From an uncultured Methanosarcinales archaeon (GTDB lineage: Archaea; Nanobdellota; Nanobdellia; Woesearchaeales; UBA12501), in assembly GCA_964343705.1 (NCBI GenBank), contig CAYFJX010000005.1, positions 66,791 through 130,790 on the forward strand: DNA of 64,000 nt, written 5' to 3'. The notes beneath the pieces are model-generated. The model worked only from the letters and a program-made list of their open reading frames with translations, was not told where the DNA came from and made no database searches. Position numbers and translations under genes: made by a program. How positions within the stretch are numbered: the stretch's first letter is position 1; each line of letters begins with the position of its first letter. Below are positions 5,983-55,928 of this stretch, in pieces.

Positions 5983-6426
5983 TCACTCACTTCTTAACAA
6001 CCACACACCAACAATGAGTGTTCCAACAGTGATGCCTGCATCAGCAAGATTGAAAGTAGGCCAACTAAAAAATTGGATGTAGTCAACAACATGGCCAAGC
6101 AGCACTCGATCAATAAGATTGCTGATTGCTCCACCGGTGATGAGTGCAACTGCTGGTAATAATTTTACAGGAATTTTTTTGAAGTAATACACTATTGCAA
6201 CAAGCACACCCATTGAAAATACAATCAAAAATGCTGTCCATCCTTGAAGCATACCAAAGGCTGCTCCGCTATTTTGTGAGAAAGTGAATGCTAGAACTTT
6301 TGAAATGATAACTTGTGACTTACCAGGAATCCAGGCAGCATCAACAAGCCATTTGAAAAACTGGTCAAGAACACAAAGTACACTCGCAATTGCAATAAAT
6401 ATCCAGGTCTGCTTTTGTAATCGCAT
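5983..6426 (-). CDS. lspA: lipoprotein signal peptidase (signal peptidase II)
   Basis: Four TM segments. Conserved LspA motifs 'NSGAAFG' and 'FSWPTFNLADAGITVG', and 'LIDR'. Confidence 0.82.
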   Translation of the reverse strand: MRLQKQTWIFIAIASVLCVLDQFFKWLVDAAWIPGKSQVIISKVLAFTFSQNSGAAFGMLQGWTAFLIVFSMGVLVAIVYYFKKIPVKLLPAVALITGGAISNLIDRVLLGHVVDYIQFFSWPTFNLADAGITVGTLIVGVWLLRSE

Positions 6427-10944: not shown

Positions 10945-11154
10945 GGGTGTGTCCCAAGAGTCTTTCTGAGGGGTGGCACTGCCGCAAGGTTTTATCAGGA
11001 AATCTCAAGGGGCGAAGCTCCTTGACGCATCTGAGCTTTGCTCAGATTGCGGCCGAATAATGAGGTGATTTCCGTTAACACTACGAATGAATTTGAGTAG
11101 TTAACACCGCAGTGCCACCCCTCCTGCACAAAAAGCAAGATTTGGGACACACCC
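10945..11154 (+). mobile_element. 210-bp MITE-like element, copy 1 (TIRs GGGTGTGTCCCAA / TTGGGACACACCC, subterminal GGGGTGGCACTGC / GCAGTGCCACCCC)
   Basis: The reverse complement of 53706..53915 matches this copy at 209 of 210 positions. Perfect 13-bp terminal inverted repeats. No ORF inside. Confidence 0.8.
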
Positions 11155-15135: not shown

Positions 15136-16402
15136 GTTCTTTAAATGCCTCACCAACTAGGTAGATAGAACCAGCAACAACAATCAGGCTATTTGGTCGT
15201 GTGATGGCACGTGCTTTGTCAAGTGCTTCTTTAACATTTTGTGACATAAGAATAACCTTGGTTTCTTCTTCTGGCAGGATCTTGTTGGCATTGTTGTAGG
15301 TGGTGTATATCTTTTCTGGTTCCTCGCTCCTGAAAAATTCAGGTTTTGTGAGGATTATTCTGGTGAAGTGGGGGAATAAGGTAGTTGTCATTTGTTTAAT
15401 GTCTTTGTTGTCCATTGCAGCAAAAACTAAGATGAGTTCATCATACCCAAGTCGCAGTTTAGCAAGTTCCTTGCACAGGGTCTTAACTCCTTGTAGGTTG
15501 TGTGCACAGTCAAATAAGAACTCCTTATTGTCTAGTTGTGCAAATTGCATTCGTCCAGGCCAGTGCACATTCATAAGTCCTTTATGTTGTTGTTCAACAG
15601 TTGTTGACAGTGACTCTATAAGTTGCATTGCACAATTTGCAACTGCAGCGTTTTGTTTTTGGTATTTTCCTTTGAGGTTAGTTTGTGCATAATCAATATC
15701 TTCCTGGTCAATTTTGAGGAGTCGGGCTTTTTTTTCCTGGCATACATTGTGCAACACAGTGAGTACTGTTTCATCGGTGTTGCTGGTAAGTACAGGAACA
15801 CCTTGCTTGATTATTCCTGCTTTTTCAAATGCAATTTTTTCAATGGTATCACCTAAGTGTTCAGTATGTTCAAGTGCAATGTGAGTGATAATGCTGAGCA
15901 AGGTGTTTTCTGCAGGGATAACATTGGTTGCGTCAAAGCGACCGCCTAGGCCTGTTTCAAGTACAACAATGTCAGTGTTGTTTTCTGCAAAGTAATCTAG
16001 TGCCATTACTGTGGTGACTTCAAAGAAGGTTTGATCAGTTCTCAGCTGAAGAAGTTTTTCTGCTCGTTGCTCAAGTTCATGATCTGAGATTGGTGTGTTG
16101 TTTATTTTGATGCGTTCATTGAACTTGATTAAGTGAGGGGAAGTGTAGAGTCCAACTTTTAATCCTGTTTGTTGGAGGATGCTAGCAAGCATTGCACAGG
16201 TTGAACCCTTGCCATTGGTTCCTGCAACGTGGATGACCTTGAGCTTTTTTTCTGGATTGTTAAGCTTGGTAAGGAGTTCAAAGGTAGGGTCAAGTCTCAA
16301 TTGTGACCCAAATCGTTTAAGTGAATATAATTCTTGTATTTTTGACATGTTTTTGGTGGGGTGAATGCAGGGTATATATGTATTGTTGTGTTGGGCTGAC
16401 AT
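15116..16402 (-). CDS. folC: folylpolyglutamate synthase / dihydrofolate synthase (Mur ligase family)
   Basis: P-loop 'VIHVAGTNGKGST', 'YTSPHL'. Mur ligase middle and C-terminal domains. Confidence 0.82.
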   Translation of the reverse strand: MSAQHNNTYIPCIHPTKNMSKIQELYSLKRFGSQLRLDPTFELLTKLNNPEKKLKVIHVAGTNGKGSTCAMLASILQQTGLKVGLYTSPHLIKFNERIKINNTPISDHELEQRAEKLLQLRTDQTFFEVTTVMALDYFAENNTDIVVLETGLGGRFDATNVIPAENTLLSIITHIALEHTEHLGDTIEKIAFEKAGIIKQGVPVLTSNTDETVLTVLHNVCQEKKARLLKIDQEDIDYAQTNLKGKYQKQNAAVANCAMQLIESLSTTVEQQHKGLMNVHWPGRMQFAQLDNKEFLFDCAHNLQGVKTLCKELAKLRLGYDELILVFAAMDNKDIKQMTTTLFPHFTRIILTKPEFFRSEEPEKIYTTYNNANKILPEEETKVILMSQNVKEALDKARAITRPNSLIVVAGSIYLVGEAFKELNIATH

Positions 16403-16553
16403 TTTGTAGGTGGGCTAGGTTCAGCAAATTCTTCAAAATCAAGGAATATTTTCAACTGCACAGATCTAGCATTTTTTAATCCGCCCTGAAGGGCGGTTAA
16501 AACTGTGCAATGTTTGATTGGTTTTTGAAACAGCCCAAGCTGAAACTAATTTT
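16402..16553 (+). repeat. about 152-nt intergenic element, copy A of a 2-member family (candidate structured ncRNA)
   Basis: About 75-80% identical to 42346..42500 in the same orientation. Internal GC hairpin CCGCCC-TGAA-GGGCGG is replaced in copy B by CCAGGCCGG-AAC-CCGGCCTGG (compensatory). Conserved TGGGCT...AGCCCA closing pair. Oligo-T 3' end. Confidence 0.5.
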
Positions 16554-16666
16554 CCCCCTTTACAAACCCATACCTTTATATAGCCCCTATTGCCTCTTTT
16601 CATCATCTGAGTGCCCCAAAGGGGAATTACAGCGCTGGCTGTATGTAAGTCTCGGGAGGACAAAAA

Positions 16667-29503: not shown

Positions 29504-30193
29504 TCACCCCTTTATGTGGGGTGGTTTATCAAATTCTACTTCACCTTCTAACAAGATGCCTTTTTTCAATTCACAGGGCCGCCAGGTGTCAATAACTAAT
29601 TCTGCATCAAGCCAGTCAGACAACTCTTTTGGATTACCTATTGTAGCACTTAATCCAAGAATCTGTACTTTGGGTAACAACTTCTTAAGCAAGGTCATAA
29701 GAATTTCAAGTGTTGGCCCTCGTCGTGGATCATTAAGCATGTGGATCTCATCAACAACTACAAGCCCAATGTCTTTTACCCATGGTGCACCATGACGAAT
29801 CACGCTGTCGAGCTTTTCACTTGTTGCGATAATAAGATCGTACTTTGCCAAGTGAGGATCACCACTATCTAAATCACCAATAGACAATGCAATGCTAAAC
29901 AATTCACCATAGCGTTGTTTGAATTGCTTGCGTTTTTCACTTGCCAATGCCTTTAAGGGTGCCAAGTAAATTGCCTTGCCTCTTTTCTGTGTGAGGATTG
30001 TGTTGATAATGGCGAGCTCGGCAACAAATGTTTTTCCAGAACCAGTTGGTGTACACACAATCATACTCTTGCCTTCAAACAATCCTTGGTCTATTGCCTT
30101 GCCTTGTGCAGGCCTGAGTTTATCAAGTCCTGCTTCTTCGTATCGTTCATAGATTACTTCTGGAATTTTACCTTTAAGATCTTTGAGTTGCAT
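29504..30193 (-). pseudogene. Ski2/Hel308-like superfamily-2 helicase, N-terminal RecA1 domain only (truncated gene remnant)
   Basis: Walker A 'CTPTGSGKTFVA', DEIH box 'VVVDEIHML', motif III 'GLSATI'. The ORF ends after about 229 aa, with no RecA2 or C-terminal domains. Confidence 0.55.
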
Positions 30194-30240
30194 GGTGTTG
30201 GTGTAATGGGGCTGTATAAAAAGATTAAGGTAAAAGAGGC

Positions 30241-30359
30241 GCCCTGGCTGGGATTTTCACCCGTACACTTTCTCTGTTGCACGAGATTTGAACCCAGATA
30301 ACGGCAAAGCCGTAACTAGATGCTCAATCTAGCGCAATACCAGATTATGCGACCAGGGC
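30241..30359 (-). tRNA. type-II tRNA (anticodon GAG, Leu; discriminator G) with a ~33-nt intron in the T-loop region
   Basis: Minus-strand fold: acceptor GCCCTGG/CCAGGGC, anticodon stem CTAGA/TCTAG, loop TTGAGCA. Long variable arm ACGGC-TTT-GCCGT. T stem CTGGG/CCCAG encloses TTCAAAT plus 33 extra nt. Confidence 0.6.
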
Positions 30360-30597
30360 ATATGGAAAATTATTTATACTTGGTCTACCTATCTATGTTT
30401 GATGCTCAATCTTCGCACATGATTATGCGACTTTTTTTCTTTATTTTTATCTTGCGTTTATCCTTAATAAGCGTTGCTCAGAGAAAATCGACGTCATTTC
30501 AGAGAGTCCAAAAACTTTTCAACTAACACTGAAACATTTACAAAATAAAAAAGAAGTCTCGGAATATTTCCGAGATAACCGAAAAAGAAAAAAAGAA

Positions 30598-42285: not shown

Positions 42286-42345
42286 ACATGATTTTGTGTG
42301 TTAAGCGTTTTTATAGTTTTAGTTTTTAAGGGTTAAAGGCTAAGG

Positions 42346-42500
42346 TTTTGTAGGTGGGCTAGGTTCAGCAAATTCTTAAAAATCAAAGAAGATTTTAATC
42401 ACACAGATTTAAAATTTATAATCCAGGCCGGAACCCGGCCTGGTTAAAACTGTGTAATATCAGATTGGTTTTTGAAACAGCCCAGACTGAAACTAATTTT
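42346..42500 (+). repeat. about 155-nt intergenic element, copy B of the 16402..16553 family (candidate structured ncRNA)
   Basis: Same orientation as copy A. Conserved flanks. Variant but still self-complementary internal hairpin. Oligo-T end. Confidence 0.5.
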
Positions 42501-42519
42501 GCCTTGCCTTTGTTAACTC

Positions 42520-53408: not shown

Positions 53409-53598
53409 TGTTTTCCCCAGTGAGTAGGAATCTGAGCGAATTTAAAAAGATTTATGGTGTGCAGGAGAATCGTTTAAATAGGGCTCTTTTCAGCAAATTT
53501 TAAAAAGAGGTTATTAAACCAAGCTAGTAATCATTCGCCCTTGTAGCATCCGCAAAAATCTTTTTGATTTTTGGGCGCTCCAAGAGCTCATTACATTC

Positions 53599-53691
53599 GC
53601 CCTTGTAGCATAGTGGTAGTGCACTGCCTTGGTATGGTCAGTAATGACAACAAAGAGGCAGAGGTCCCGAGTTCAAATCTCGGCAAGGGCT
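53599..53691 (+). tRNA. tRNA-Thr (anticodon GGT) with 21-nt intron at canonical 37/38
   Basis: Acceptor GCCCTTG/CAAGGGC, D stem GCAT/GTGC, anticodon stem CTGCC/GGCAG, loop TTGGTA[intron]A, T arm CCGAG-TTCAAAT-CTCGG. Confidence 0.75.
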
Positions 53692-53705: not shown

Positions 53706-53915
53706 GGGTGTGTCCCAAATCTTGCTTTTTGTGCAGGAGGGGTGGCACTGCGGTGTTAACTACTCAAATCCATTCGTAGTGTTAACGGAAATCACCTCAT
53801 TATTCGGCCGCAATCTGAGCAAAGCTCAGATGCGTCAAGGAGCTTCGCCCCTTGAGATTTCCTGATAAAACCTTGCGGCAGTGCCACCCCTCAGAAAGAC
53901 TCTTGGGACACACCC
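53706..53915 (-). mobile_element. 210-bp MITE-like element, copy 2 (inverted relative to copy 1)
   Basis: Reverse complement matches 10945..11154 at 209 of 210 positions. Immediately 3' of tRNA-Thr. Confidence 0.8.
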
Positions 53916-55449: not shown

Positions 55450-55582
55450 TCACCATGTATCATGAAGCATGGATCATATATAAATCTTTTGATTTTCCGC
55501 TAAAAATTTATAAACACCTACTTTAATCTCCTTCATATGGGCCCGTGGTCTAGTCTGGTATGACGCAATAAAATGAAAAAGT

Positions 55583-55655
55583 GGGTCTGTGGTCTAGTGG
55601 CTATGACATCGCCTCGACACGGCGGGGATCCCCGGTTCGAGTCCGGGCAGACCCA
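55583..55655 (+). tRNA. tRNA-Val (anticodon GAC)
   Basis: Acceptor GGGTCTG/CAGACCC, anticodon stem TCGCC/GGCGG, loop TCGACAC (C at position 33 is unusual), T arm CCCGG-TTCGAGT-CCGGG. Confidence 0.75.
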
Positions 55656-55928
55656 TTTTCATTTTACGTGCATAAAATCTTTGATTTTATTGCGTCGCAT
55701 CGACACGGCGGGATTTTGTTTTTTATGAGTCGTTCCGCAGGGTCGAACATAGTGAGATCCTGCATTGCACTATTGGGTTGATAAGGGGCGTAGCATCCCT
55801 TATCCCTGTAGTTCAAATATTGGCGCCCGAAGGGAGACAATACCTTCGAACGTCAGTGAGAAAGTCCGGGCGGGCCCATGTTTTCTTTTCAACAAACTTT
55901 ATTAATGCTAAAGCCTATTTTGTGACTA

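Follow-up and report, generated by a model that had tools for sequence, protein, structure and literature searches.

A tRNA-Leu(GAG) gene with an intron at position 59/60 and a conserved upstream copy of its anticodon arm in a DPANN archaeon

The tRNA gene and its intron

The stretch of DNA that was analysed, 64,000 nucleotides long and referred to here as the window, carries on its minus strand a 120-nt class II pre-tRNA gene with the anticodon GAG (30240..30359) and, upstream of this gene, a partial copy of the same tRNA. The gene was recognized from its fold, from the ARAGORN call on its spliced sequence, and in a blind scan for bulge-helix-bulge (BHB) motifs. Read on the minus strand from 30359 to 30240, its sequence is GCCCTGG-TC-GCAT-AATCTGGTA-TTGC-G-CTAGA-TTGAGCA-TCTAG-TTACGGCTTTGCCGTTAT-CTGGG-TTCAAA[33 nt]T-CCCAG-CCAGGGC-G. 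The spliced ARAGORN call and our BHB script divide the gene into two exons, both on the minus strand. Exon 1 (30287..30359; tRNA positions 1-59) comprises the acceptor 5' strand GCCCTGG, the D arm, the anticodon arm, an 18-nt variable arm, the 5' strand of the T stem, and TTCAAA. Exon 2 (30240..30253; positions 60-73) comprises T, the T stem 3' strand CCCAG, the acceptor 3' strand CCAGGGC, and the discriminator G73 (30240), which is not followed by an encoded CCA. The anticodon (30323..30325, minus strand) lies in the loop UUGAGCA, with C at position 37. A short T-run, TTTT (30232..30235, minus strand), is located 4 nt 3' of G73 and probably acts as an archaeal terminator; beyond it comes the promoter of the next gene.

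The window derives from an ENA metagenome, and its population is represented in ENA study PRJEB17505. Signs of an archaeal host in the window include a deoxyhypusine synthase, an archaeal A24 peptidase, leaderless TATA promoters, and relatives among the Woesearchaeota and Nanoarchaeota. The product of the gene directly 3' of the tRNA (29504-30193, minus strand) is no more than the N-terminal DEAD/ResIII half of a helicase (229 aa), and a PIN toxin module on the other strand stands where the C-terminal half would be expected. The helicase is either split or truncated.

Standard searches did not recover the tRNA. ARAGORN made no call on the unspliced gene and found only two other tRNAs in the whole window, the same two that were found when the whole window was searched with Rfam at gathering thresholds. 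A focused Rfam search scored the locus at 17.4 bits (gathering score 29, E = 0.52) and skipped the T arm. The unspliced 120-nt gene folds with -49.8 kcal/mol (z = -5.2 versus shuffles). Extension of the window's contig yielded no further tRNAs. When 33 nt were removed from the T-loop, the resulting 87-nt sequence was called tRNA-Leu(GAG) by ARAGORN. In this spliced tRNA the acceptor stem is 7 bp and the anticodon stem 5 bp long, the variable arm is long, and G18G19 and the T-loop TTCAAAT are present.

The 33 nt that were removed, TCTCGTGCAACAGAGAAAGTGTACGGGTGAAAA (30254..30286, minus strand), form a BHB intron at position 59/60. Its inner helix consists of 8 bp, CUCGUGCA/UGUACGGG, closed by a 10-nt loop. 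In the central 4-bp helix UGAA at the 3' end of the intron pairs with UUCA of the T-loop (U54-A57), and the outer helix is the 5-bp T stem CUGGG/CCCAG. AAU bulges, one on each strand, carry the cleavage sites. The BHB script, whose geometry places the cut after the second bulge base, scored the site with 4/4 central pairs, 5 outer bp, and 8 inner bp. Thus, the locus has the strict hBHBh' arrangement of two 3-nt bulges with a 4-bp helix between them and a helix on either side, a geometry like that of canonical 37/38 introns in which the T arm replaces the anticodon arm. In the blind scan all strict BHB-flanked segments of 11-130 nt were removed from both strands across the window and ARAGORN was run on each product; the sole real tRNA recovered was the tRNA-Leu gene, with the intron at 30286..30254. 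The intron is a textbook strict BHB intron at position 59/60, a known but rare kind. Position 59/60 is a listed site of non-canonical introns, in which Crenarchaeota and Nanoarchaeota are rich (PMC4090602), and many disrupted tRNA genes of DPANN lineages have been missed by prediction programs (PMC5829648).

Processing of the precursor would require the archaeal splicing endonuclease to cut both bulges and an RtcB-type ligase to join the exons, which would restore the T-loop UUCAAAU; trimming of the ends and then CCA addition would follow. No Pfam match to a splicing endonuclease or an RtcB-type ligase was found among the 26 largest ORFs of the window.

A pattern scan of 185,579 species genomes gave 11 matches, two of which were true homologues, one in Candidatus Woesearchaeota UBA10192, a MAG (L006), and the other in the Nanoarchaeota SAG AM-311-I03 (L005). 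In a metagenome scan with 15 matches only L006-like sequences were obtained, which added L013, identical to L006, and L026, a close relative; the L006 type is present in the JGI samples Ga0209542 and Ga0209541. The scan pattern demanded the 11-mer of the anticodon arm; C37 was fixed in the genome scan and left free in the metagenome scan. The comparison is one of three independent lineages: the window, the L006 type, and L005. Introns are present at the same 59/60 site in L006 (34 nt), L026 (34 nt), and L005 (25 nt), with a central helix of 4/4 pairs in L006 and L026 and a slightly relaxed 3/4 in L005. The spliced homologues were all called tRNA-Leu(GAG) by ARAGORN, which made no call in the L005 and L006 loci holding the unspliced genes. 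In all three lineages the anticodon is GAG and the variable arm is 17-20 nt long. The spliced tRNAs share 68-75% pairwise identity, and compensatory double changes were found at 10 of the 28 consensus pairs. The RNAalifold consensus of the T arm and intron keeps the T stem, the UUCA/UGAA helix, and a 3-nt bulge. The introns of the window and L006 align in sequence, and the intron is thus old. Attempts to find relatives through neighbouring genes gave nothing further. For example, among 5.8 billion proteins none exceeds 32% identity to the phosphorylase beside the window gene, which marks the lineage as isolated, and homologues of the L006 glutamine synthetase (60-67% identity) do not keep the tRNA beside them.

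A decaying locus with an accidental insertion, and no intron, in its T-loop would fit the failure of standard tools to find the gene and the degenerate appearance of other tRNA-like fragments in the window, such as the outer tRNA-Val fragments described below. This explanation is highly improbable. The BHB is perfect exactly where the endonuclease geometry demands it, three lineages share the insertion site and the BHB motif, ten pairs have undergone compensatory double changes, and the exon sequences of L006 and L026 are identical. The conserved intron site and the compensatory stem changes therefore indicate a functional gene and not a pseudogene. Judged by its sequence, the locus is a real, functional archaeal leucine tRNA gene.

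These results agree with most of what a first-pass annotation of this DNA had proposed for the gene. It had described a type II tRNA with the anticodon GAG, which is what the spliced sequence on the minus strand was called. It had noted that the T stem CTGGG/CCCAG encloses TTCAAAT plus about 33 nt, and the extra nucleotides number exactly 33. The intron, which it placed at or near 59/60, is cut at 59/60 according to the strict BHB, and its view that this is a non-canonical position, known among others from some DPANN archaea, is borne out by the listing of the site (PMC4090602) and by the homologues in Woesearchaeota and Nanoarchaeota. ARAGORN, one of the programs that it recommended, gave no conventional fold for the unspliced gene and tRNA-Leu(GAG) after intron removal, and the pseudogene that it named as the alternative is at odds with homologues in three lineages that show compensatory changes.

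Leucine identity and the decoding of CUY codons

The tRNA combines class II architecture and a leucine anticodon in all three lineages with two bases that are not those expected of such a tRNA. The discriminator is G73 rather than A73, and position 37 in the common loop UUGAGCA is C rather than the purine (m1G37) of CUN readers, in the window, L006, L026, and L005 alike. Both bases had been flagged as oddities in the first-pass annotation, and both are real. C37 is very unusual for a CUN reader. The metagenome scan, with position 37 free, still returned only C37 in a tRNA context. A73 is a leucine determinant in Escherichia coli, yeast, human, and Haloferax volcanii (PMC9976931). In H. volcanii, the one archaeon studied, leucine identity is set by A73 together with the variable arm, and LeuRS is blocked by G73 of tRNA-Ser, an antideterminant (PMC9976931). 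In principle, a class II tRNA that combines G73 with a leucine anticodon might thus put serine at CUY codons.

The meaning of the codons that this anticodon would read was assessed by aligning CUY codons with homologous proteins. In the phosphorylase gene of the window (77 homologues) CUY codons align with Leu, Ile, or Val, and position 222, encoded by CTT, is Leu in 77 of the 77 homologues. For the 19 CUY codons of the L006 glutamine synthetase, the aligned residues are Leu in 84% (CTT) and 73% (CTC) of cases and Ser in ~0%. Across the two genes the residues aligned with CUY are Leu, Ile, Met, or Val and in no case Ser, and invariant leucines have CTC or CTT as their codons, with CTC used in the L006 glutamine synthetase. 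CUU and CUC are also the commonest leucine codons in the genes examined. A reassignment of CUY from leucine to serine is excluded by these codon-to-homologue alignments in two organisms. Because CUY means leucine and is heavily used, the tRNA is most likely leucylated, despite G73 and C37, by a LeuRS that follows different rules. Charging with leucine would mean that the LeuRS of this lineage does not require A73. A second, canonical tRNA-Leu(GAG) gene may be present elsewhere in the genome, outside the region examined.

An alternative is that the gene specifies a serine-accepting tRNA or a non-translational class II tRNA-like RNA and that CUY is read by another tRNA. G73 and a long variable arm are indeed the serine identity set, and C37 replaces the usual purine in all three lineages; on the other hand, GAG is not a serine anticodon and CUY does not stand for serine. 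In archaea a single G34 tRNA-Leu normally reads CUY, which counts against this alternative. So does the use of CUY codons, the commonest leucine codons, at invariant Leu positions, where insertion of serine would be harmful. The tRNA has also kept the hallmarks of an elongator (G18G19, the T-loop UUCAAAU, and G53-C61) and has evolved in a compensatory manner. Class II tRNAs in which anticodon and identity set disagree do exist, as exemplified by Candida tRNA-Ser(CAG). Nematode nev-tRNAs, whose charging does not match their anticodon, likewise have a long variable arm and a discriminator at odds with the amino acid of the anticodon (PMC3333845). Unlike in these cases, codon usage here gives no indication of reassignment or visible ambiguity, with CUY standing for leucine. 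We consider the serine-accepting or non-translational alternative improbable and a leucine-charged reader of CUY the better account of the gene.

The upstream partial copy

The partial copy of the tRNA lies 5' of the gene on the same strand (30401..30431, minus strand) and reads GTCGCATAATC-ATGTGCGA-AGATTGAGCATC. It is defined by exact blocks, by shuffling, and by equivalents in L006 and L005. The block GTCGCATAATC corresponds to tRNA positions 7-17 and AGATTGAGCATC to positions 29-40, whereas the middle, ATGTGCGA, is rewritten. As repeats on the window, GATGCTCAATCT occurs at 30319-30330 and 30401-30412, and GATTATGCGAC at 30343-30353 and 30421-30431. The copy forms a hairpin of its own, TCGCA-N8-TGCGA. 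When the 150-nt upstream region was shuffled 20,000 times, only 46 of the shuffles had any 11-mer in common with the gene, and the real sequence has two collinear blocks; a chance origin of the copy is therefore negligible. The distance from the copy to the tRNA start, which includes a spacer, a TATA box, and a short leader, is 41 nt in the window and 41-49 nt across the lineages.

Equivalent copies are found in L006 (6213..6179) and L005 (7301..7268), in both cases upstream of the TATA box. The copy shared by L006 and L026 covers positions 7-12 and 26-40, with a different hairpin between them, and that of L005 covers positions 27-47, with 32 of 34 bases identical. Each copy follows its own tRNA at bases that are specific to the lineage. 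For example, position 7 is G in the window and A in L006, and the L006 copy also matches its own tRNA at positions 26-29. In the L005 copy the wobble pair U28-G42 of the tRNA becomes a C-G pair, a change that is relevant only if the opposite strand folds. The spacer between copy and TATA box is 22-23 nt long in all lineages, and its sequences are unrelated between lineages. These comparisons demonstrate a conserved cassette with the order promoter, truncated anticodon-arm copy, 22-23 nt spacer, TATA box, and tRNA.

The alignment of L006 and L026 extends over no more than ~330 bp, starting at the upstream promoter-like site and ending at the terminator T-run, and their flanks are unrelated. Within this block no changes were found in the 63 nt of the copy and adjoining A-tract or in the tRNA exons, 1 was found in the intron, and the 23-nt spacer between copy and TATA box has 3 substitutions and 1 indel. 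Zero changes in the copy versus four in the spacer is what an element under selection would show and a scar would not. A motif, TTTTCCGGTT(G/T)A, occurs several times upstream of the cassette in L006 (~6290-6420) and especially in L026 (~150-310). These repeats could be protein-binding sites or a repeat family.

Promoters were predicted with a PWM that was learnt from 30 gene upstream regions of the window and has the consensus AAAAAAACTTTATAAA; the 99.9th percentile of scores in the window is 5.44. In about half of the 30 regions the TATA motif lies 21-23 nt (mostly exactly 22) before the start codon, a distance at which the mRNAs look leaderless and which is useful for annotating starts in this lineage. 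The BRE/TATA-like site between copy and tRNA, TGGAAAATTATTTATA (30363..30378, plus strand; TATA box 30371-30378), scores 5.7 on the strand opposite to the tRNA, with a predicted start 0 nt from the copy edge (30401), and 5.0 in the tRNA sense, with a start at tRNA position 12. In L006 the corresponding scores are 6.8, with a start 1 nt from the copy edge, and 3.7, with a start at position 5; in L005 they are 9.2, with a start 0 nt from the copy edge, and 5.9, again with a start at position 5. The opposite-strand starts meet the copy edge even though this edge corresponds to tRNA position 40 in the window and L006 and to the variable arm in L005, and the predicted start base is a G after a T in each lineage.

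Sense starts at these positions inside the tRNA would be of no use to it. The TATA box nearest the tRNA is 11-18 nt 5' of G1, too close to serve the tRNA, which points to the site upstream of the copy as the tRNA's promoter. In the window the candidate is ACGCAAGATAAAAATA (30442..30457, minus strand), with a score of 6.8; a weaker sense promoter-like site is present at 30464-30479. Across the lineages the sense promoter-like sites 5' of the copy score 6.8, 6.0, and 7.3, and the L006 equivalent is inside the block conserved in L026. The predicted start of the sense site relative to the copy is not constant. According to these predictions, transcription of the tRNA precursor is probably driven from the sense sites 5' of the copy, in which case the copy would also be part of a long leader. 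Folding of the predicted precursors did not reveal a shared leader structure involving the copy.

On the opposite strand, a run of seven T residues (30432..30438, plus strand) directly follows the copy. The equivalent runs are T6 in L005 and, in L006, a T5 run 11 nt further on. The copy hairpin with its T-run was flagged as terminator-like in the window and in L005, not in L006. If the copy is expressed, its most likely product would be a short RNA read from the opposite strand. It is possible, although on balance doubtful, that the copy is a small RNA gene whose predicted transcript of 31-37 nt, driven by the opposite-strand reading of the TATA box between copy and tRNA, would run on the opposite strand from the copy edge to the T-run. 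The exposed sequence of this predicted antisense RNA shows perfect complementarity to the anticodon loop of tRNA-Leu(GAG) and the stem beside it.

Several other roles for the copy were considered and rejected. A C/D box guide sRNA would have the boxes RUGAUGA (C) and CUGA (D) and 12-nt guides directly before D/D'; by eye, the window copy has no CUGA and the CUGA of L006 is at the wrong spacing, and an Rfam search of the locus gave snoRNA matches only at chance level. The 5' half of a split tRNA of the Nanoarchaeum type, which would hold positions 1 to ~37 and then a sequence pairing with the leader of the 3' half, does not fit, as the acceptor 5' strand (positions 1-6) is missing in all lineages, and the copy cannot provide the exons of an overlapping tRNA, for which either the motifs or the acceptor strand are absent. 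No BHB that could define a second intron connects the copy and the tRNA.

The copy could also be a neutral leftover, either of a tandem duplication or of an integrative element attached to the tRNA, that has no function and is transcribed merely within a long 5' leader or never. Integration classically leaves partial tRNA copies behind, and tRNA-Leu(GAG) serves fuselloviruses as attB (PMC4090602). Moreover, the region 5' of the copy in the window and L005 resembles the TATA region on the tRNA side, as a tandem duplication of a promoter plus 5' part would leave it, and the other two tRNA genes of the window have upstream partial 5' copies, so that sloppy duplication seems common in this genome. 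We consider such a leftover possible but unlikely. The copy is internal, lacks positions 1-6 and stops short of the gene end, and only 41-49 nt separate it from the tRNA start. There is no mobile element between the repeats or beside them and no integrase gene near the copy, and the neighbours are housekeeping genes (phosphorylase, enolase, and helicase in the window; GS and a beta-CASP nuclease in L006; pyruvate kinase in L005). Searches of phage, plasmid, and IMG/VR collections with the locus and with the tRNA pattern gave no matches. The blocks still match the tRNA base for base, in contrast to the scrambled spacer and middle of the copy, L006 and L026 differ at 0 of the 63 nt and four times in the 23-nt spacer, and the spacer length is held at 22-23 nt despite unrelated spacer sequences. 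On this evidence the copy is probably a selected element rather than a functionless, decaying footprint. It would have begun as a duplication and then been kept by selection.

The first-pass annotation had also noticed that segments of the gene recur next to it, and these are the two exact collinear blocks of the copy (30431..30401). Its explanation, a footprint of integration or duplication, holds only for the duplication. A passively decaying footprint of integration fits poorly with an internal repeat of positions 7-40 that lacks a mobile element and is conserved and co-evolving in three lineages.

The other two tRNA genes of the window carry upstream partial copies of themselves, each behind the strongest promoter of its locus, which suggests that this genome habitually duplicates the 5' parts of its tRNA genes. 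The tRNA-Thr(GGU) gene (53599-53691) has a canonical 37/38 intron. Its partial copy (53532-53549), 62 nt upstream, is an exact 18-nt repeat of the leader and the first 13 nt (CATTCGCCCTTGTAGCAT), and the hairpin CAAAAATC-TTTTT-GATTTTTG is located between copy and gene. The promoter score is 9.9 before the copy and a weak 2.8 before the real gene. The tRNA-Val(GAC) gene (55583-55655), which by position has C33 instead of U33, is nested between the parts of another tRNA-Val-like gene (window 55539-55878). The 5' part of the outer gene (55539-55565, GGGCCCG...) owns a promoter with a score of 9.2 and a start 2 nt before G1, and its 3' end is ...CCGGGCGGGCCCA at 55878. The inner gene is flanked by the inverted repeat GACGCAATAAAATGAAAA / TTTTCATTTTA...TTTTATTGCGTC, and a BHB-like site predicts a 127-nt intron at 26/27. 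A search for a clean outer tRNA-Val among 24,551 BHB-splice combinations in ARAGORN gave only chimeras with the inner gene, and the outer fragments were treated as a degenerate gene. The locus is either a tRNA nested in the intron of a degenerate tRNA or an insertion.

Two further repeats were found in the window. A 210-nt element with 13-nt terminal inverted repeats (GGGTGTGTCCCAA...TTGGGACACACCC) occurs twice (10945-11154 and 53706-53915) in inverted orientation with 100% identity, and one of the copies begins 14 nt after tRNA-Thr. The fold of the element is extremely stable (-99.3 kcal/mol, z = -10), and a search against Rfam gave no match. The element may be mobile and MITE-like, or it may be an unknown structured RNA. 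An intergenic repeat of ~165 nt is present in direct copies (16394-16556 and 42338-42503) that are ~90% identical.

Relation to known systems and implications

Non-canonical archaeal BHB tRNA introns were reportedly described by Marck and Grosjean in 2003 and by Sugahara et al. in 2008. The intron studied here resembles other non-canonical BHB introns in its strict hBHBh' motif, its listed 59/60 site, and the cloverleaf that is restored by its removal (PMC4090602). It differs from them in its host, an uncultured DPANN archaeon related to Woesearchaeota and Nanoarchaeota and not a member of the Thermoproteales, and in that one site is conserved across deep lineages and has not been recently transposed. 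Disrupted genes that go unrecognised leave gaps in the tRNA sets predicted for Woesearchaeota and Pacearchaeota (PMC5829648, PMC3239211). The window gene, from the same kind of organism, is such a missed case. With respect to the broad-specificity endonucleases of DPANN archaea, the motif here is a strict BHB and broad specificity is needed only for its position.

The copy shares with SSV-type attachment-site repeats that it is a direct partial repeat of a tRNA adjoining the tRNA gene (PMC4090602). In contrast to those repeats, it is internal (positions 7-40 or 27-47), 41-49 nt from the start of the tRNA, not associated with an element, and co-evolving with its tRNA. Another comparison is with the C/D box intron of H. 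volcanii tRNA-Trp, a guide RNA for its own tRNA encoded at the tRNA locus (PMC4090602). Here, too, an RNA complementary to the anticodon-arm region of a tRNA would be encoded at the locus of that tRNA. In the window there are two complementary blocks of 11-12 nt. However, usable C/D or C'/D' boxes at the required spacing are absent, and the element, whose expression is only predicted, is located on the opposite strand and outside the gene.

Taken together, and with a probability of about 80% on the sequence comparisons above, the locus encodes a DPANN tRNA-Leu(GAG) that has a 33-nt intron at 59/60, reads CUY, is charged with leucine, and belongs to a conserved cassette with a copy under selection. 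The intron is of a known kind. What is new is the combination of G73 and C37 and the conserved, co-evolving copy of the anticodon arm.

The gene is a concrete example of the 'missing' DPANN tRNAs that standard annotation overlooks, and removal of BHB introns followed by a tRNA search provides a recipe for recovering others. A CUY reader with G73 and C37 in three lineages in which CUY means leucine implies that LeuRS and SerRS discriminate between their tRNAs differently there. If the copy does give rise to an antisense RNA, Nanoarchaeota and Woesearchaeota would have a conserved tRNA/anti-tRNA pair, the antisense partner of which would bind the tRNA, regulate it, or guide its modification. If expressed, it would to our knowledge be the first dedicated antisense tRNA partner encoded beside its target in archaea.
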